A stretch of 64,000 bases of DNA, taken from the NCBI GenBank assembly GCA_000092065.1, contig CP000589.1, one strand, 5' to 3'. Positions 38,185-63,820 of this stretch are shown in pieces. The position numbers and the translations under genes are program-made. Position 1 is the first letter of the stretch; every line of letters begins with the position of its first letter. The notes under the pieces are model-generated. The model saw nothing but the letters and a program-made list of their open reading frames with translations. It had not been told where the DNA came from and made no database searches. The DNA is from Ostreococcus lucimarinus. Lineage: Eukaryota.

Positions 38185-39615
38185 ATGCGATCCGCGTCCG
38201 CGCGCGTCGCGCGATCCGCGACGCGCGGCGCGCGGTGTCGACGCCGACGCGCGCGCGTCGCGCGATCGACGCGCGCCGCGAGGCCGACGGCGCCGTCGAT
38301 CGCGTTCGTCGGGTGGGAGTGGATCGAACCGTCGTCCTCGGCGGCGGGCGCGCGGTCCGTCGCGCTCGTCGCGGAGGCGCTGCGGCGAGGGTGGCGCGTG
38401 ACGTGCGTCGCCAGCGCGGAGGCGCGCGCGGGGCAGGAGGACGCGCTCCGCGCGATGGGCGCCGAGACGCGCCGGATGAAGGCGAATCGAGGGGATGAAT
38501 TGCGCGCGCTCGTCGAGGCGGCGAGACCGGATTGCGTCGTGTTCGATAGGTTCCTCGCGGAGGAGGCGTACGCGGGGAGGCTGCGGGAGATCGCGCCGAG
38601 CGTGGTGCGAGTGCTCGACATGCAGGACGCGCACGCGCTGCGAAGGGCGAGGGAACGCGCGGCGAAGGCGGCGAAGACGCGCGGCGAAGACGCGGCGAAG
38701 GAGGTTTTGAAGAGCGCGCCGAACGCGAGGGACGAGGATTTGATGCGCGAGATCGCGAGCGTGCAGAGGAGCGATTTAACTCTGGTGTGCTCGCCCGTGG
38801 AAAAGGAGTGGTTGACGCGCGAGTGCGGCGTGGCGGAGAGGAAATTACGCTTGGCGTCCTTCTTCGTCGATTCCGTCGACGCCGAGGCGATGAAGAGGGA
38901 TTTTAGCGCGCGGAAGGATTTCGCCACCATCGGTACGTTCATGCATAAACCAAACGTAGATTCTGTAGAGTGGTTGTGCGAAGAGGTGTGGCCGTTGGTG
39001 CGCAAACAGCTCCCCAACGCGACGATGCGCGTGTACGGATCTTACGCCACCGAAAACCATCGTCGACGATTTCACAAACCAGCGCAAGGATTCTTGTTCG
39101 AAGGTTTCGCGGAGGACTTGGGCGAGACGTTGCGCGCGCATCGCGTGTTGCTCGCCCCGCTTCGGTTCGGCGCCGGTATCAAAGGCAAGATTCTCGACGC
39201 GTGGCGATACGGATTACCCGCGTGCACGACGCCCATCGGCTCCGAGGGATGCGTGCCGGACGTCGTCGAGTTTTGGTCGCCCACTTCGAGCGCGCCGATA
39301 GACCCCGAGCACGGGTGGGGCGGGTTTGGCGATTTCACAAACCCGCAAGATATCGCCGACGCCGCCGTTCGTCTTCACGAAGACGAAAATTTGTGGCGTC
39401 TCGCTCGCGGAAACGGCGCCGACCTCCTCGATCGCCTCTTCTCCGCCCGCGTCAACTTACCCGACGTCTTCGACGCCATCGAGCGCGTCATCGACGATGT
39501 CGATGCCGTTCGAGACGCGGATTATTTCGGCCAGTGCTTATGGCGAGAAGACGTGCGTTCGACGACGTACTTTTCCAAATGGATCGAAGCGAAAGAAACC
39601 GGCGCGACGAATTAG
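38185..39615 (+). CDS. GT-B fold glycosyltransferase (GT4-like)
   Basis: The C-terminal FEGFAEDLGETLRAHRVLLAPLRFGAGIKGKILDAWRYGLPACTTPIGSEG matches the GT4 'E..G.....EAma.G.P.v' sugar-donor-binding region. The N-terminus is R/A-rich and transit-like. ATG at 38185. Confidence 0.6.
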   Translation: MRSASARVARSATRGARCRRRRARVARSTRAARPTAPSIAFVGWEWIEPSSSAAGARSVALVAEALRRGWRVTCVASAEARAGQEDALRAMGAETRRMKANRGDELRALVEAARPDCVVFDRFLAEEAYAGRLREIAPSVVRVLDMQDAHALRRARERAAKAAKTRGEDAAKEVLKSAPNARDEDLMREIASVQRSDLTLVCSPVEKEWLTRECGVAERKLRLASFFVDSVDAEAMKRDFSARKDFATIGTFMHKPNVDSVEWLCEEVWPLVRKQLPNATMRVYGSYATENHRRRFHKPAQGFLFEGFAEDLGETLRAHRVLLAPLRFGAGIKGKILDAWRYGLPACTTPIGSEGCVPDVVEFWSPTSSAPIDPEHGWGGFGDFTNPQDIADAAVRLHEDENLWRLARGNGADLLDRLFSARVNLPDVFDAIERVIDDVDAVRDADYFGQCLWREDVRSTTYFSKWIEAKETGATN

Positions 39616-58248: not shown

Positions 58249-59973
58249 TCATCGCTCCTTCTTACTCTCGTTTTCGGTCGCATCGTCCTTCTTACTCTCG
58301 TCTTCGGCGCCGGCGTCGGCGACGTAGCCGAATTCATTCGCGCGAGTTTCGTCGACGCGATAGACGCGTCTCTGATACAAGAATAAGAGGAAGATGACGT
58401 CGTCTCTGAAGACGGAAATGCGGTGAAGTGTGGGCATCTTGATGACGAAGGCGAATAAGTCGTCGATGATGGTGTTTAGGAACTTGTAGCCCATCTGTTT
58501 CCACGGCATAGCGGCGACGCTCTTGAGTTTGTAGTTGACGTACAGCTGAGGCGTCATGCTGATGAAACCAAAAGTATAGACAGCCCCGACGAGCGTACTC
58601 AGGACGAACGACCACCAACCTTTGTGTTCGTGCGTGCGCAGGCTGTACACGGCGTATACTCCCACGAGTGGATATAGCGCGTACGACAAATAGCGCATGG
58701 CGTCCGCGTCGTGTCGAGCGGTGTCGCTCTTGAGCGCGCTCGCCTTGTCGGCGACGCGAAGCCGCGGAAAGCGTCCGTCTCGATCAACAGAGACGTCCAT
58801 CGCGCGCGTCACCTTCCAAAACTCAATAACGACGCCCAAACCACTGGAAATAAGTATCATCCACGACGTTTCGTTGTCGCACAGGTACAAAAAGATGACG
58901 AGCTGACAAAAGGCGTTCAAAAGAACGCTTCGAGCGGACAATCCTTCGAGACTTTTGCGATTTCGCCAAAACTGCACGTCGTGTTTGAATGCAAAGAAAT
59001 CAAATATCGTGTGTAGCAAACTCACAACTGTCGTCACCGCGAGCAACGTCGGATTTCCTTCGAGAAACACGCGCTTCATGTTGTCCGCGTCGTGTTCTCC
59101 CGCCGCGCCGAACGCGCGTTGCGTCGACCACGTCTGCTCCATGGACTCTTCCATCTGCCAACGAAACTGAGAAATCGTCTCGAGGTTCAAGTTTATCTTC
59201 ATCTCGCGCGCGCTCGTTTCGTTCAGCTCGCGCAGATGGCTCTTGATGATCCAAAACTCGTTAAAATACACCGTGGGATAGTATCCCGACCGCCGCTCGT
59301 CCGAAAATCGCATTCGCCTCGCCAGGATGTCTGGAATCGTCGCCCCGCGATACGCCGCGAAATCATCCACCACGGTCAACGTCGCGTTGGGTTTATAATA
59401 CGCCTGATAATACTCCATCCCATCTTCCAACCCCTCCGTCCCGTCCTCGCGCGGCTCCGCCCGCGCCGAATCCTCGCCCAAGAGCTTCCTCCTTCGCGCG
59501 ACTCTTCGTCTTCGCCAAATCGTCGCGTCGAAAGACACTCGCAAAACGTCCCCATCGTCGTACCCCTCGTCCGCCGGATCCAGCGACGCGCCTAAACGCG
59601 AAACGATCGCGTGCAATTTCACGCTCACGTTTCTCGCCACCGCGTCCACGAGCGCGACCCCGAGATCCAACTCGACGTCGCGCGTCGCCGACGCCAGCGG
59701 CGCCGTCGTCCCCCACAGCGGCGTCTCCGCGTGAAAATTCACGCTCGACGCCTCGTAATCCTCCGCGAGCGCGTGCACGCGCACGTCAACGACTTCGTCC
59801 CGGCGCCACAGGTTCCGACAGACGTCCGCGTACGCCGTCGTCGTCGTCGTCGTCGTCGCGACGTCTTGGAACGCTTTCGGCGCGGAAACCGTCGTCAAGC
59901 TTCGCGTCAGGCGCACGGCGAAGCCGTACATCGCCGCGAGGCGCGCGATCTTGAGCGCGCTCTGCGCTCGCGA

Positions 59974-60007
<34 letters not shown>

Positions 60008-60018
60008 TCGGTCGACAT
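58249..60018 (-). CDS. CLPTM1: CLPTM1 (cleft lip and palate transmembrane protein 1) family membrane protein
   Basis: YYQAYYKPNATLTVVDD, YYPTVYFNEFW, MKRVFLEGNPTLLAVTTVVSLLHTIFDFFAFKHDVQFW, SARSVLLNAFCQLVIFLYLCDNETSWMIL are diagnostic CLPTM1 blocks. In-frame ATG at 60018. The C-terminus ends in an ESKK-repeat encoded by a 30-bp tandem repeat. Confidence 0.85.
58256..58315. repeat. 30-bp tandem repeat (x2) at the 3' end of the CLPTM1 CDS
   Basis: tccttcttactctcgttttcggtcgcatcg / tccttcttactctcgtcttcggcgccggcg. Encodes ESKKDDATENESKKER on the minus strand. Confidence 0.8.
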
Positions 60019-60039
60019 CGCGGCGCGGCGCGGCACACG

Positions 60040-60528
60040 ATGACGCCGCTCGAAGACGAAATCGCGTCGAGAATCGCGCGACAGCGCGCGCTGGCGCGCG
60101 CGAACGCCGCGGAGTTGGCGTGCGCGACGCTCGCGTTGACGCCGCGCGCGCGGCTGCGCGAGGCGCGGGCCGCGGCGGAAGAGATGGCGAACGCGTCGGC
60201 GGACGCGGCGACCGTTAGAGCGCGCGTTCGCGATTGGCGCGACGCGCAGAGGCGCGCCGAGGACGCGCGCGCGAAGGAAACGACGCGAGCGATGGACAGT
60301 GAACGACGCGCGCGCGCGCGGGAGGCGACGGTGGCGCGAGAGGCGCGAGAGACGAGGATCAGAGCGCGCGCGGCGTCGAAGGCGCGGCGACGCGCCGAAG
60401 CGGAGGCGGCGAACGCGCGAGCGGCGAACGCGCGAGCGACGAGTCGCGCGGCGAACGAGGCGATGATTTCGTTATTTCAGGTGCGCATCGCGACGCGCGA
60501 ATGGGTCGGTGAACGACGGAGGGACTGA
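60040..60528 (+). CDS. small Arg/Ala/Glu coiled-coil ORF (uncertain). A second ORF 60509..60898 follows in the next frame
   Basis: In-frame ATG (MTPLEDEIASRIARQRALARA). Composition is dominated by GC bias. The two ORFs could be one gene with a frameshift, or noise. Confidence 0.2.
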   Translation: MTPLEDEIASRIARQRALARANAAELACATLALTPRARLREARAAAEEMANASADAATVRARVRDWRDAQRRAEDARAKETTRAMDSERRARAREATVAREARETRIRARAASKARRRAEAEAANARAANARATSRAANEAMISLFQVRIATREWVGERRRD

Positions 60529-60985
60529 CGACGCGCTCGTTTCGTTTGGTTCGCGCGCGAGGCAGGCTCGAGACGCGCAAACGGTACGACGACGCCGCGA
60601 CGCCATCGCGGCGTTAGACGTGGAAATAGCCGAGCGCGAATTGCGATTGGAAACTGCGACGGCGCGCGCGCGCCCGTTCGTGCACCGCTCGAGAGAACGC
60701 TTGTCGAGTTGGACGGAGGCCGCCGCGCGCCGTTTCGTGGCGACGACGCTCGAGCGCGAGCGCGTCGAGGATCTCGACGTTTTCGCGCGCGCCGCGCGTC
60801 AGGGGTGGGTCTTAGACGCGCACAAGTACCGTCGCACCGCGCCGCGTTGGCGCGTGTTAGATCCTCGATGCGGCGGCGTCGTCATTCGCGAGTATTAAGT
60901 CGCGCGTCTGGGTAGTTAGAGTAGCTCGTCCCGAACAACAGTCGTTGATCGTCCGACTTCAGACGCCGCCTCTCGCCTCGCCACG

Positions 60986-63820
60986 ATGCGCGCGAACCGC
61001 GACCGCGCGTTTCACGGCATACACTCCGACGCCACCGTCGCCGGAAGCGACGGCGCCGCGCCGCGTCGTCGCGACGAGCGCGAGCTCACCGAGCTCGACG
61101 TCTTCGGGACGCTCAAGGAAAAGCACCACAAAAACACCGTGAAAACGATGCGCGCGATGTACGCGGACGTCCGCGAGCGACGGCGAAGGGCGATGGAAGA
61201 TTTAACGCCGCTCCAACGCCGGGCGCGGGCGAGCGGAGGCGTGAATCCGTTCGATTGGTCGGATGGACACGTGGGACACTTTTACGAGTTCATGGTGGCG
61301 GAGAACGCGGCGAGCGAACGAGGAGCGAAGTCGCGCGCCATGGTGTTCGAGAGACAGGATGAGTCGGGACAAAACGTGGTGGAGGAATTATTCGATAGTT
61401 TTAGGGCGGACTACGCGGATCGGTGGCGGGCGGAGGTGGTGTGCGGGATCGACGCGAGCGCGGGGGCGTGCGAGCGGTATAGGGACGCCGCGGCGGAGGC
61501 GTGCGAAGCGTTGCTGGGAGACGACGACGCACGAGAGATGGGGGCGTGCGAGACGTATTTGCACACGTATGGGATCGTGCACGAGCATTGGCACGTGGAA
61601 GATTACGTGCAGGCCAGGAATACGTTGGGATACTCAAAGCCAAAGATGGAGGCGCCAAAGCGATATCCGGCGAATTTGTGGGGAGACTCGGTCTTGGCGC
61701 GCTCGAGAAACGGGGAATGTTCGGCCTGTAGTACTCAAGTGATCACTCTTCAAGGATATGTCGACGTGGATGTGGGGACGACCTATTCTTTAGGCGCCGA
61801 GCGAGAGGACAAGTGGGTGTTCGACGCCGAGCGATGGGCGCACGACGTACCAATGACAAAGTTCAAAATTGCGAAGACGTGTTGCACGAACGCGCAATTC
61901 GCGTGCTTTGTCGAAACAGGAGGTTATGCCGACAGAAGTCTTTGGAGTCACGAAGGGTGGCGATGGGTGGAAAAACGACGCGCCGCGGGTGAATTGTTGG
62001 CGCCTCTCGGTTGGAAAGTGTCGCCGTGCGTGAAATTCTTAAGCAACGGCGAAGAAGCACCCGCGTGTGAGAGTTGGCGATGTGCGTACTTTGATGAAGC
62101 GCCACGCGCACTACATCCGCAGCACCCTGTGTGCCACGTGTCGTGGTACGAAGCCGAGGCGTATTGTAACTGGATTGGCGCACGTTTACCGACTGAGGCG
62201 GAATGGGAAGCAGCCGCGAGAACGACGACGAGTTGGTCGACGGACAAACAAACCACAAAGCGTCGCACGTATCCGTGGGGTGAAGAATCTCCTTCAGAAG
62301 ACAAAGCAAATCTTGGTGGACACTTTGGAGGTACTATTGATGTCAGTGCTTTGGGTGCGGGCGATAGCGCGCACGGTTGCCGACAGATGTTGGGCAACGT
62401 TTGGGAATGGACGGCGTCGGCTTTCCTGCCTTTTCCCGGTTTTCAAATGGACTACCCGTATCGCGAAAACAGCTGTCCGTGGTTTGGGTATAGAAAAGTC
62501 GTCAAAGGCGGGTGTTGGGCGACGAGCGCGCCCATCGCGCGTGCGGCATATAGACACTCGTTTTGGCCGCACATGCACAACACGTTCAGTGGATTTCGCG
62601 CCGCTATCGGTGGCTCGCAAAAGCGCGCGCTTTGCATTCTTCCGCAAAAAATACAGAGCGGCGCAAAATGTGGCAACGTGGTCACGATGGAAAGAATTTC
62701 TTCGCATCTCGAGAAGAATCACATCATGAGCATCACGCGTTCGATTTTTGATCTGCCGCAGTCAAAGGAGGATTTGGCGAACATAATACACGCGATGAAC
62801 GTCGATTTGATCATCGTCTTGCACGCTTTCAAGTGCGGTGCCGTGATCGATACCGTACAGGCATATAAAGACATGCTCCCGCCTATCGTTCTAGTGCTCG
62901 GCGGCACCGACGTCAACGTGGATTCTCGAAAGTCTGCGCTCGCTGAGGAACAATTTCGCCGACGCGTTGACGTCGCGACAAAAGTTGTCTCGTTTTCCTT
63001 GTCCATGATAGAAGCCGCACCCAAAGGTGCGTTGAAATTTATCGAGTCGGACTCGACATCTAAAACCAAACTGATACCGCAAGGAGTCATGCTCCCGAGC
63101 ACGTTGAAGGCTTCAAAGCGCAAAAGGCTTGCAGATGAAACTGTGGAAACACCCGGCGAGCTTCAAGGCACCTCGCGGCCTGCGGACCTATCGATACCGA
63201 TCATGTTCCTACCTGCGGGATTACGCCCAGTCAAGGACGTGTGCTTCATAAACGACGCATTGACTGCGTATAACTCAAATGGAATCAAAGCACATCTGAC
63301 TGTGTGCGGCCCTTTCCTCGATTCGGCGTACGCGAAACGCGTGCGATGTCAGTTTGACGGTCGTTCCGATTGTACCTTGCTAGCAGGTGTCGATCGCGCG
63401 ACGCTTGTAAGGTTCATCGGCGAGGCGAAAGTTTTGTTGAACACCTCGGTATCGGAAGGTCAAAGCGGAACCATCGCTGAAGCGATGATGGTGGGGACTT
63501 TAGTCTTCGCGCGAGATATTCCAGGCAATCGTCAGCTCTTTGAGTTGTGCGAAGCGAGAGCGCTCGCAGCACTCGGTCCTGCGACGATAAAGGAGATGAA
63601 GGGCGATGGATGGGAGGTTCACCCGGTGGGAGTACTATTCTCGACTCCAGAGGGTTGCATGCGCGCTTTCGAAGCATTAGGTCTCGAAAGAGAGTCGACC
63701 GAAGACGTGGATGTATCGTTGATTAGACTCCGCGCGCGCGAAGGCGTCGCCGAACTGTCATTGAACGAAGCGAAGCGTTGGACGGAAATTTTAGACGAAA
63801 TCACCGCGCACGGTTCATGA
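60986..63820 (+). CDS. fusion protein: DinB-like/FGE-sulfatase (EgtB/OvoA/SUMF-like) domain plus C-terminal GT4-like glycosyltransferase domain
   Basis: ATG verified. The middle region (HPVCHVSWYEAEAYCNWIGARLPTEAEWEAAAR...YPWGEE...MLGNVWEWTASAF...KVVKGGCWATSAPIARAAYRHSFWPHMHNTFSGFR) is a complete FGE-sulfatase/C-type-lectin-like fold. The upstream HEHWHVEDY His cluster suggests a DinB-like metal site. The C-terminal 350 aa end in SEGQSGTIAEAMMVGTLVFARDIPGNRQL, a GT-B donor-binding motif. Confidence 0.65.
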   Translation: MRANRDRAFHGIHSDATVAGSDGAAPRRRDERELTELDVFGTLKEKHHKNTVKTMRAMYADVRERRRRAMEDLTPLQRRARASGGVNPFDWSDGHVGHFYEFMVAENAASERGAKSRAMVFERQDESGQNVVEELFDSFRADYADRWRAEVVCGIDASAGACERYRDAAAEACEALLGDDDAREMGACETYLHTYGIVHEHWHVEDYVQARNTLGYSKPKMEAPKRYPANLWGDSVLARSRNGECSACSTQVITLQGYVDVDVGTTYSLGAEREDKWVFDAERWAHDVPMTKFKIAKTCCTNAQFACFVETGGYADRSLWSHEGWRWVEKRRAAGELLAPLGWKVSPCVKFLSNGEEAPACESWRCAYFDEAPRALHPQHPVCHVSWYEAEAYCNWIGARLPTEAEWEAAARTTTSWSTDKQTTKRRTYPWGEESPSEDKANLGGHFGGTIDVSALGAGDSAHGCRQMLGNVWEWTASAFLPFPGFQMDYPYRENSCPWFGYRKVVKGGCWATSAPIARAAYRHSFWPHMHNTFSGFRAAIGGSQKRALCILPQKIQSGAKCGNVVTMERISSHLEKNHIMSITRSIFDLPQSKEDLANIIHAMNVDLIIVLHAFKCGAVIDTVQAYKDMLPPIVLVLGGTDVNVDSRKSALAEEQFRRRVDVATKVVSFSLSMIEAAPKGALKFIESDSTSKTKLIPQGVMLPSTLKASKRKRLADETVETPGELQGTSRPADLSIPIMFLPAGLRPVKDVCFINDALTAYNSNGIKAHLTVCGPFLDSAYAKRVRCQFDGRSDCTLLAGVDRATLVRFIGEAKVLLNTSVSEGQSGTIAEAMMVGTLVFARDIPGNRQLFELCEARALAALGPATIKEMKGDGWEVHPVGVLFSTPEGCMRAFEALGLERESTEDVDVSLIRLRAREGVAELSLNEAKRWTEILDEITAHGS

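Follow-up and report, generated by a model that had tools for sequence, protein, structure and literature searches.

A fused SenA/OvsA-like iron enzyme and SenB-like glycosyltransferase as a candidate organoselenium biosynthetic enzyme in a marine green picoalga

In tuna and other marine animals, organic selenium occurs chiefly as selenoneine, and animals excrete selenium as selenosugars. To our knowledge, the ecological source of selenoneine has not been established, and the dedicated pathways described so far (sen and ovs) are bacterial only. The closest described systems are SenB plus SenA of the bacterial selenoneine (sen) cluster of Variovorax paradoxus (bioRxiv 10.1101/2022.04.13.486033; PDB 8fbx, 8jjn, 8k5i) and the Halomonas utahensis selenoxide synthase of ovoselenol formation, OvsA (PMC11030361; PDB 8u41/8u42). 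SenA and OvsA belong with EgtB and OvoA to the non-heme iron sulfoxide/selenoxide synthases (NHISS). Residue roles have been assigned in SenB (PMC10891094 and PMC11237966), where N20/T23, K158 (Se-P cleavage), R155, E231, and E239 are critical by mutagenesis and N20, H58, T83, G84, and T85 form the selenophosphate pocket, and in SenA, where the reference residues are H71/H167/H171, N63, E68, and R120 (PMC11237966). A further relevant family comprises the animal "glycosyltransferase 1 domain-containing protein 1" (GLT1D1), for which a function in PD-L1 glycosylation has been proposed (PMC7191186), and NF038229, the "GPMC system family 4 glycosyltransferase."

The window analyzed here is a 64-kb stretch of Ostreococcus lucimarinus DNA, and all features of the fusion gene lie on its plus strand. 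A neighboring PheRS gene places the host among the chlorophytes, but no more precisely. A complete open reading frame (ORF) at 60986..63820, with its TGA stop at 63818-63820 and no internal stops, encodes one polypeptide of 944 amino acids (aa), beginning MRANRDRAFH and consisting of an N-terminal extension, DinB-like and FGE-type domains, a linker, and a GT-B glycosyltransferase (GT). The extension (aa 1-50; 60986..61135) carries the motif RDRxFHGIH, which sequence comparison found in all eukaryotic relatives; orthologues whose first residues are this same motif support the start codon. An earlier note, made from the sequence alone, had read the locus as a one-protein fusion, and this reading held: the ORF is uninterrupted, the three domains are present, and the exact protein occurs on many marine metagenome contigs. 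The strings quoted in that note were also all located (HEHWH at 199-203, WEWTAS at 473-478, GGCWATS at 508-514, RHSFWP at 523-528, and SEGQSGTIAEA at 823-833). An index search found the identical 944-aa protein in 569 blocks of public assemblies, and an AlphaFold2 model of the whole chain was confident overall, with a pLDDT of 85.4 and a pTM of 0.88, but of low confidence in the active-site loop at 496-522.

Could two genes have been joined by a sequencing or assembly error? A stop codon does part the two halves in sister lineages, where a single in-frame TGA lies at the junction; the earlier note had named an intervening stop as the sign of two genes, and such a codon is thus found in those lineages but not in the window. 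However, six contigs of 58 to 157 kb from different samples carry the exact protein with the same eukaryotic neighbors, and orthologues at 60 to 68% identity have an equally continuous, one-piece architecture; the ORF is therefore neither an assembly nor a frameshift chimera. One-piece fusions also occur among more distant relatives, and the "split" forms share one frame and lack a start codon ahead of the conserved GT motifs. A gene-merging artefact is thus very unlikely. Two other features of the stretch were considered and set aside. The GC content drops inside the ORF, but the drop begins at about aa 200 rather than at the domain boundary, and neighboring genes fall in the same range, so it was rejected as a mark of recent fusion or transfer. 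Another GT, encoded at 38185..39615 of the window, has no similarity to the fused GT and is not its paralogue.

The NHISS half consists of a DinB-like four-helix domain (aa ~51-215; 61136..61630) and an FGE-type C-lectin domain (aa 250-545; 61733..62620), identified by Pfam, alignment, and fold. Pfam FGE-sulfatase matched residues 257-540 (E value of 1.8e-45), and DinB_2 matched residues 60-202 under the family cut-off (E value of 0.0056). This half aligned full-length to OvsA, EgtB, and SenA. Among solved relatives, its family profile scored highest against the selenoxide synthase OvsA (373 bits, full length, E value of 1e-110), followed by EgtB-I (285 bits), SenA (249), EgtB-II (204), FGE (~120), and OvoA (114). 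OvsA was likewise the best Foldseek match (8u41, E value of 5e-26, TM 0.81-0.83). The top NCBIfam model was SenA, with 292 bits versus 220 for EgtB, and this order, with a margin of about 70 bits, was unchanged in every relative.

Catalytic residues are present in both domains. The Fe(II) ligands H95 (61268-61270) and H199/H203 within HEHWH (61580-61594), all in the DinB-like domain, align with OvsA and correspond to SenA H71/H167/H171. Almost all members of the window's clade retain this triad, and those without it are divergent or partial sequences. Tyr492 (62459-62461), which lies in the FGE-type domain together with N495, is the predicted catalytic tyrosine: its context DYPYRENS aligns unambiguously with HPYRDYS of SenA, it is kept throughout the clade, and its reference counterparts are MthEgtB Y377, SenA Y363, and OvsA Y398. 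Donor-pocket residues N87, S92, Y143, and R146 of the DinB-like domain were placed by alignment with OvsA and with SenA N63, E68, and R120, and both SenA selenosugar contacts, N63 and R120, have conserved counterparts. By these comparisons, the N-terminal half is predicted to be an intact non-heme-iron sulfoxide/selenoxide synthase, in agreement with the DinB-like iron site and EgtB/OvoA-kind FGE fold that the earlier note had recognized and that Pfam, alignments, and Foldseek now bear out. That note had also entertained an alternative sulfatase-maturation route. The Pfam FGE-sulfatase match and the presence of FGE structures among the detectable relatives would fit a formylglycine-generating enzyme, but FGE reaches only ~120 bits against 373 for OvsA, FGE/SUMF1 alignment is limited to the C-lectin part, and the protein has an additional DinB domain with the three-histidine iron site, as well as the catalytic tyrosine of sulfoxide/selenoxide synthases. 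We regard this alternative as exceedingly improbable.

The pocket residues set the protein apart from characterized NHISS enzymes. The acceptor-pocket triplet H524-S525-F526 (62555-62563) and M530 lie in the FGE-type domain, and the composite motif of the window protein reads N-S-H / Y-R / H-W-H / Y-N-H-S-F-M, which over 17 positions matches neither SenA nor OvsA. Compared with the SenA motif, xNEH--HRHxHYYN(F/Y)(F/Y)R (PMC11030361), six positions differ: among them, E68 is Ser (E68A greatly impairs SenA), Y366/N395/F396 are N/H/S, and R401 is Met. Compared with the OvsA motif, xNEH--HRHxHYMQAYR, M-Q-A-Y-R reads N-H-S-F-M and E reads S, while the shared positions are N, the iron-binding histidines, R, and the catalytic Y. 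Comparison with the composite motifs of EgtB types I and II, OvoA, and EgtB-IV found none of the EgtB/OvoA donor residues (S/D, R87, D416/R420, or the leading R..Y..D of OvoA), and scores were 220 bits against TIGR03440 (cut-off of 360 bits) and 116 bits against TIGR04344 (cut-off of 400 bits). Scores also lay below the equivalog cut-offs of the other curated models: 292 of 420 bits for SenA (NF041186), 62.6 of 300 for SenB (TIGR04348), and 150 of 400 for NF038229. On the motif evidence, the Y-N-H-S-F-M pocket is placed outside every characterized subfamily, so the product may be new, differing from both selenoneine and ovoselenol. In the N495/H524/S525 pocket, the aromatic and Asn side chains that hold the hercynine trimethylammonium group are missing, so hercynine seems a less likely acceptor than unmethylated histidine or some other imidazole.

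The C-terminal half is a GT-B enzyme, as the earlier note had concluded, with Pfam matches (Glyco_trans_1_4/Glycos_transf_1, residues 745-853, ~1e-6, over the cut-offs) and SenB fold matches. Its N-terminal Rossmann domain (aa 546-735; 62621..63190) was identified by alignment, model, and fold, and its C-terminal nucleotide-sugar domain plus C-terminal helix (aa 736-944; 63191..63817) by these and Pfam. NF038229 was the best match for all 23 aligned family members, and TIGR04348 also matched 23 of 23 (best E value of 7e-24); for the window GT, the latter was the second-best curated family (3e-17), and the next scored 23.6 bits. Full-length homology and the common motifs GN..T, H, GGTD.N, GLRPVKD, SEG..EA, and GN place the GT in the GLT1D1/NF038229 family, a sister family of SenB at ~17 to 18% identity. 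The invariant positions of its alignment are H69, G96, T97, D98, G201, R203, V205, K206, S277, E280, E288, G303, and N304.

Structure searches pointed to SenB. The best PDB match of the GT family profile was RsSenB (8k5u; full length, including the GN..T motif; 5e-25); with the single GT sequence, SenB chains were the only matches with an E value of <1, at a weak ~0.13. Among the 50 Foldseek matches listed, every GT-B structure was a SenB (TM 0.76-0.80). The window GT has counterparts of SenB N20 and T23 (N564/T567 in GNVVT, 62672-62686), H58 (H613, 62822-62824), T85 and D86 (T641/D642, with G640, in GGTD at 639-642, aligned with SenB T83-D86, 62900-62911), R155, V157, and K158 (R747/V749/K750 in GLRPVKD, 63218-63238), and E231 and E239 (E824 and E832 in SEGQSGTIAEA, 63452-63484). 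Most of these residues vary little or not at all across the family alignment, with full invariance at H58, T85, D86, R155, V157, K158, E231, and E239 (SenB numbering); T83 (G639) and H235 of EGGAHV (G828) are lost in the window GT. By sequence and fold, then, the GT half falls within the GLT1D1/"GPMC GT4" family, and its nearest solved relatives are SenB selenosugar synthases.

The profile score alone would place the GT family about equally near BshA (89.8 bits) and SenB (91.4 bits), and GTD and R-x-V-K motifs are found in BshA too. This near-equality (BshA structures 2jjm, 1.6e-24, and 3mbo, 1.9e-24) is compatible with a sulfur version of the pathway, in which the NHISS half would be an ergothioneine/ovothiol-type sulfoxide synthase with a thiol donor and a BshA/MshA-like GT would build the sugar scaffold of that glycosylated low-molecular-weight thiol. 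EgtB-I as the second-best solved NHISS relative and the two selenosugar-pocket residues unlike SenA (E68 to S and R401 to M) also fit. However, the donor residues of EgtB-I/EgtB-II (S/D, R87, D416/R420, or the YY insertion) are absent too, SenA leads EgtB in every relative, the GT-B structures among the listed Foldseek matches are SenB throughout, and the N-terminal GN..T motif falls outside the BshA alignment. Moreover, a thiol on a BshA/MshA scaffold requires a deacetylase and a Cys ligase, neither of which is tied to this locus, and bacterial family members adjoin selB/selA rather than bacillithiol or mycothiol genes. We therefore consider the sulfur version rather unlikely.

Other genomes give the following context. 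Three Bacillales genomes have a GT-family gene that overlaps selB at its 3′ end; selA lies ~1.7 to 3.4 kb downstream in two of the three, and selU is also found ~8 kb upstream in one. In one deltaproteobacterial genome, an NF038229-family GT adjoins a Mur-ligase-like gene. A Mantoniella transcript encodes a stand-alone GT of the GLT1D1/NF038229 family. Mamiellophyceae have a complete Sec machinery, SPS among its components (PMC6627142), which would supply the selenophosphate. The 64-kb window has no selD/SPS, EgtD, or OvsM-type gene, an absence that says little in a eukaryotic genome but lends no support either.

The NHISS and GT modules are linked recurrently. One-piece NHISS-GT fusions form at least three clusters at 50% identity, the reverse order, GT-NHISS, is found as well (frequently behind an EgtD-type histidine methyltransferase at the N terminus; P0031, P0032, and P0039), and in further relatives GT and NHISS ORFs are adjacent in the same frame. 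Three pocket variants (HSF, SFY, and NFF) are all tied to one GT family. When metagenomes were scanned for the locus pattern with the NHISS profile, the matches were largely FGE-like loci of bacteria, and only two loci (L015 and L016) were useful.

The earlier note had correctly remarked that the fusion partner, here a GT4-type GT-B, is not the usual methyltransferase. It had proposed an uncharacterized pathway to a glycosylated product; it had missed the SenB-SenA/OvsA precedent, which accounts for the pairing with the GT. In that proposal, the NHISS half would convert histidine to a sulfoxide or thiol, and the GT joined to it would glycosylate this product or another acceptor. The pairing by itself is compatible with such decoration, and GT-B enzymes vary in their N-terminal domain, where the acceptor binds (PMC10702425). 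Yet it is precisely in this domain that the SenB-specific selenophosphate binders N20, H58, T85/D86, and R155 are conserved. In addition, bacteria and animals without an NHISS partner have stand-alone GTs, which in Bacillales lie in selenium loci, suggesting that the acceptor is small, universal, and related to selenium and is not a histidine derivative. Product decoration thus appears improbable. The likeliest role of the GT is to provide the chalcogen donor, not to glycosylate a thiol, because both halves are closest to SenB and SenA/OvsA, where the SenB selenosugar is the selenium donor.

Sister lineages have a single conserved in-frame TGA, in a CUG-UGA-C context, between the NHISS and GT halves, at the position homologous to the inter-domain linker IGGSQKRALCILPQK (aa 541-555; 62606..62650) of the window protein, and this conservation would imply UGA recoding. 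An Rfam scan of four split-type loci and the window gene's locus found no SECIS element at E values up to 5, and a manual search found no AUGA core within ~340 to 500 nt of the 3′ UTRs of two loci (L008 and L098). Selenocysteine at the junction is disfavored by these empty searches, although SECIS prediction often fails in Mamiellophyceae (PMC6627142). Folding z-scores of −1.6 to +0.4 versus shuffles for the 90 nt 3′ of the TGA do not support a stimulatory RNA structure. The conserved UGA is a candidate for programmed recoding in green algae and, if real, could couple half-to-half stoichiometry to translation conditions or selenium status.

Taken together, the domain identities, intact catalytic residues, closest relatives, and recurrent linkage shown here are best explained by a two-function enzyme with which a marine green picoalga would build organoselenium compounds of the selenoneine/ovoselenol type, one that probably makes a selenosugar and then uses it to selenylate a histidine-type substrate. 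We infer the use of selenium rather than sulfur, the sugar, the acceptor, and any channeling. The SenB-like GT-B domain would take selenophosphate, from the alga's selenophosphate synthetase, and a UDP-sugar, form a C1-Se glycosidic bond, and hydrolyze the Se-P bond (Lys750, SenB K158) to yield a 1-seleno-sugar. The DinB/FGE module, as a SenA/OvsA-like non-heme Fe(II)/O2 enzyme, would bind the imidazole substrate on iron (H95, H199, H203), and with Tyr492 as catalytic acid the selenosugar Se would be coupled to an imidazole carbon, giving a selenoxide that would shed the sugar to leave a selenohistidine-type selenol or selone. Covalent fusion could keep the oxidation-prone selenosugar beside the module that consumes it. 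A bolder reading, which we offer tentatively as less likely true than false, is that the window's clade makes an undescribed selenohistidine-type metabolite, because its N-H-S-F-M acceptor pocket is unlike those of SenA and OvsA; that all GLT1D1/NF038229 GTs, including the animal ones, are selenosugar synthases; and that the sister-alga UGA makes the selenosugar-synthase half depend on recoding, by read-through or, less likely, Sec insertion.

If the organoselenium assignment is right, abundant phytoplankton may make selenoneine-like antioxidants: the SenB-like/SenA-like fusion of this picoalga turns up in hundreds of marine metagenome assemblies, and its divergent pocket may hold new chemistry. 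The repeated independent fusions, like the selB/selA placement in Bacillales, support a putative function for the orphan GT family to which animal GLT1D1 belongs. On the bolder reading, GLT1D1 would become a candidate for the enzyme behind the selenosugars of animal selenium excretion. Our literature search found no account of a eukaryotic SenA-SenB fusion and no tie between GLT1D1 and selenosugars or selenium.

The proposed scheme most resembles SenB plus SenA, in which a GT-B enzyme makes a selenosugar from selenophosphate and a UDP-sugar and a DinB/FGE iron enzyme then forms a C-Se bond on a histidine derivative. Among curated models, SenA fits the N-terminal half best, and the nearest solved fold to the C-terminal half is SenB, with catalytic residues largely kept; however, bacterial SenB and SenA are separate genes, whereas the window encodes a single polypeptide in a eukaryote, with no senC adjoining. 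By sequence as well as fold, OvsA is the solved protein nearest to the N-terminal half, and the two share a small residue (Ser525 in the window protein, Ala431 in OvsA) where hercynine-using enzymes have an aromatic one, which suggests an unmethylated histidine acceptor. OvsA differs at the M-Q-A-Y-R pocket and is not fused to a GT, and no OvsM-type methyltransferase was found in the window. GLT1D1 of shrimp and starfish and a Capsaspora homologue align with the window GT over most of their length and share its GN..T, H, GGTD.N, GLRPVKD, SEG...EA, and GN motifs, except where the Capsaspora N terminus is truncated, but these proteins stand alone. Egt1, EgtB, and OvoA use cysteine or gamma-Glu-Cys as the donor, through binding residues absent from the window protein, and their fusion partners are methyltransferases and never a GT. 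They nonetheless share its NHISS fold, three-histidine site, and catalytic tyrosine, and they provide the precedent for joining pathway steps in one chain: fungal Egt1 unites EgtD with EgtB, and OvoA unites a sulfoxide synthase with a methyltransferase.

The fusion gene (60986-63820, + strand) is a single, uninterrupted ORF of 944 codons, and every peptide string that the earlier note had cited for its product was found in the translation. Pfam placed an FGE-sulfatase domain at residues 257 to 540 (E value of 1.8e-45), a GT4-type glycosyltransferase (GT) domain (Glycos_transf_1/Glyco_trans_1_4) at residues 745 to 853, and a sub-threshold DinB_2 match at residues 60 to 202. In public assemblies, 569 indexed blocks contain the identical 944-aa protein. 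Six contigs of 58 to 157 kb from different marine samples carry it among unchanged eukaryotic neighbors, flanked upstream by CLPTM1 and an MFS sugar transporter and downstream by PHM7/CRAL-TRIO/RMI1, and orthologs of 60 to 68% identity (921 to 956 aa) keep the one-piece architecture. Because an identical protein occurs on many independent contigs and its orthologs are in one piece, the fusion of a non-heme iron sulfoxide/selenoxide synthase (NHISS) half with a GT half, as the earlier note had proposed, is real and conserved.

The other genes of the window are ordinary green-alga housekeeping genes (Det1, PAP-fibrillin, DHHC, Vps18, PheRS, and NAD synthase). All relatives of this PheRS that bear a name belong to Viridiplantae, and the host is probably a marine chlorophyte with a compact genome, of the Mamiellophyceae type. 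In the fusion ORF, GC/GC3 is 0.66/0.79 over codons 1 to 100 and falls to about 0.53/0.57 further on, with a shift that begins near codon 200, away from the domain boundary; the L015 ortholog has a similar GC trend, and the remaining window genes span 0.51 to 0.65. A second Glyco_trans_1_4 ORF (38185-39615, + strand; listed as 476 aa), whose 5′ part overlaps the opposite-strand Det1 ORF, is not a relative of the fused GT (BLASTP E value of 1.4). Between CLPTM1 and the fusion gene lie Arg/Ala-rich ORFs at 60509-60898 (+, 129 aa) and 59611-60528 (+, 305 aa); the gene calls for this interval in matching metagenome contigs are of 129 and 162 aa, neither with a Pfam match. The two ORFs may be spurious GC-rich ORFs or may lie where the fusion gene has its promoter/5′ UTR.

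Among curated models, the N-terminal half scored best with SenA, the selenoneine synthase (292 bits), followed by EgtB (220 bits) and the OvoA N-terminal model (116 bits), and it fell under the equivalog cutoff of each. The closest solved structure in a single-sequence search was OvsA, the ovoselenol selenoxide synthase of Halomonas utahensis (4e-57), and a profile of 24 family members matched OvsA over its full length (about 1e-110, 373 bits). With the same profile, EgtB-I scored 285 bits, SenA 249, EgtB-II 204, EgtB-IV 162, and OvoA 114; a generic FGE was rejected as the identity of this half, since FGEs reached about 120 bits versus 373 for OvsA. OvsA was also the top match (E value of 5e-26, TM score of 0.81 to 0.83) in a fold search with an AlphaFold2 model of the fusion protein (pLDDT, 85.4; pTM, 0.88).

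Residues were assigned from alignments to solved NHISS enzymes and published residue roles. By alignment, H95, H199, and H203 form the three-His iron triad, and the catalytic Tyr (SenA Y363, OvsA Y398) is Y492. N63 and R120, which contact the selenosugar in SenA, have N87 and R146 as their counterparts; SenA E68 is replaced by Ser92. The histidine/hercynine pocket reads N495-H524-S525-F526-M530, in contrast to Y-N-F-F-R in SenA and M-Q-A-Y-R in OvsA. Across 143 homologs for which pocket and active-site positions were read out, the motif N-(S/G/A)-H-(H/Y)-R-H-W-H-Y-N-H-S-F-M was invariant in the window clade, fused or "split"; a second eukaryotic clade, including a Haptolina sequence, ended in Y-Q-S-F-Y-R, and canonical SenA-motif proteins, taken here to be bacterial, ended in Y-Y-N-F-F/Y-R. 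None of the six characterized NHISS composite motifs compared fits the fusion protein. Judged from its sequence, the N-terminal half is an intact NHISS of a subfamily outside those six motifs. Ser525 occupies a position that is aromatic in hercynine-using enzymes and Ala in the histidine-using OvsA and OvoA, which, we infer, argues for unmethylated histidine or another imidazole as the acceptor. Internally, pLDDT drops below 50 only at residues 496 to 512 and 520 to 522; the loop spanning residues 496 to 522 (62471-62551), which links Tyr492 to the HSF pocket triplet, is probably a mobile active-site lid.

A single-sequence PDB search with the GT half gave E values of <1 for three entries only, all of SenB, the bacterial selenosugar synthase, and these were weak (about 0.13). 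Database relatives are stand-alone GTs of 300 to 590 aa and include shrimp and starfish GLT1D1 ("glycosyltransferase 1 domain-containing protein 1"), a Capsaspora hypothetical protein, and bacterial proteins; the transcriptome of Mantoniella (Mamiellophyceae) also holds a stand-alone member. A 23-member alignment gave the signature GN..T, H, GGTD.N, GLRPVKD, GP, NTS.SEG....EA, GN. The best solved match of the GT profile was RsSenB (8k5u; 5e-25), aligned over its full length including GN..T; BshA-type GT4s scored almost equally (1.6e-24), in an alignment that begins after GN..T. Since BshA has both GTD and R-x-V-K too, these motifs alone do not discriminate. Among curated families, NF038229 ("GPMC system family 4 GT") ranked first for each of the 23 members, all of which also matched SenB TIGR04348 (best E value of 7e-24); for the window GT domain, SenB was the runner-up with 62.6 bits, against 23.6 for the family after it. 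Among the 50 fold search matches listed, all GT-B structures were SenB (TM score of 0.76 to 0.80). Equivalents of residues critical in SenB mutagenesis are present (N20/T23, H58, T85/D86, R155/V157/K158, E231, and E239), K158 being the residue that cleaves the Se-P bond in SenB, whereas T83 and H235 are not conserved. The animal GLT1D1 and Capsaspora homologs in this family (P0187, P0190, P0207, and P0192; GT-family alignment A1) share most SenB-like signature residues; the N-terminal part is missing from the Capsaspora sequence. In the literature found, GLT1D1 is treated only as a putative protein glycosyltransferase, and our search found no GLT1D1-selenium link.

Four proteins (P0029, P0035, P0043, and P0370) have the GT before the NHISS, opposite to the order in the window, and three (P0031, P0032, and P0039) are EgtD-GT-NHISS triple fusions; the N-terminal domain of P0032 matches EgtD TIGR03438 (1.3e-51). 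By analogy with selenoneine biosynthesis, the fused EgtD would supply hercynine. Of two more distant one-piece NHISS-GT proteins, P0367 has the pocket YRNFF, the canonical SenA-like form, and P0366 (906 aa) combines intact GT motifs with a degenerate NHISS half (two iron ligands replaced, H95 by S and H203 by N, and the catalytic Tyr by Phe), which may be a pseudo-enzyme domain retained as a scaffold. Because the GT family is the same in both domain orders and across three pocket variants, the association is best explained by NHISS and GT catalyzing consecutive steps of one pathway.

In three Bacillales genomes (GCA_035776675, L011 1-1396; GCA_000787375, L013 1045-3982; GCA_035701065, L014 8107-14013), the last 20 to 35 nt of selB overlap with a GT-family gene; selA lies about 1.7 to 3.4 kb downstream in two of the three and selU about 8 kb upstream in one. 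This selB/selA context is an independent, conserved selenium link for the GT family. A Syntrophotaleaceae genome (GCA_041390365, L009 10001-12304) differs in having its NF038229 GT immediately before a Mur-ligase-like gene, with selO on the opposite strand 0.8 kb upstream.

Some relatives are called as two adjacent genes. In all six distinct loci of this kind, which are related by descent, the GT frame is the NHISS frame and one stop separates the two: a TGA at L007 1897-1899, L008 4582-4584, L016 4684-4686, L095/L096 7756-7758, L097 7705-7707, and L098 7624-7626. Each follows Leu (CTG or CTC) and precedes C; as a caveat, besides the common descent of the loci, TGA-C is more frequent than any other stop context in these GC-rich contigs. 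The ATG check covered L007, L008, L095/L096, L097, and L098: L008 has an ATG 15 codons past the junction, and the other four run from the TGA into the conserved linker and GN..T motif without any ATG. Because no ATG lies between the TGA and the GT motifs, the sequences of the ATG-less loci imply that their GT half would need UGA recoding. The window linker IGGSQKRALCILPQ is homologous to the post-TGA sequence, with Ser at the stop position of the relatives, and fused orthologs have S, T, or a gap there, not Cys. No SECIS was found in the split-type loci scanned, AUGA was absent from two of their 3′ UTRs, and RNA structure downstream of the junction TGA was not significant. Given the lack of SECIS, the two AUGA-less 3′ UTRs, and the lack of Cys in fused orthologs, we favor programmed read-through over Sec insertion at the junction UGA.

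The Sec machinery is complete in Mamiellophyceae, and their selenoproteomes are large (PMC6627142). In the proposed mechanism, selenophosphate from the alga's SPS would react with a UDP-sugar in the GT half to give a selenosugar, which the NHISS half would couple, with Fe(II) and O2, to an imidazole carbon; the resulting selenoxide would collapse to a selenol/selone. SenB discriminates 10- to 20-fold against thiophosphate, which is not a known metabolite; for both reasons, selenium would be the likelier chalcogen. On balance, we consider it somewhat probable that the protein is a fused selenosugar synthase and selenoxide synthase acting on an imidazole-type acceptor; we are far surer of the domain identities and their functional coupling than of the chalcogen, sugar, or acceptor.

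Read in this way, the fusion enzyme would be a testable eukaryotic source of marine selenohistidine compounds, and an orphan GT family gains a proposed function. The divergent pocket hints at a new product, and relatives of the gene may join both halves through UGA recoding. Our literature search found no eukaryotic or fused SenA-SenB version. Tested against the cutoffs and composite motifs of the SenB and SenA/OvsA equivalogs, the fusion protein reached none of the cutoffs and fitted none of the motifs. Although it thus falls in neither equivalog, by analogy it would work as SenB and SenA/OvsA do together.
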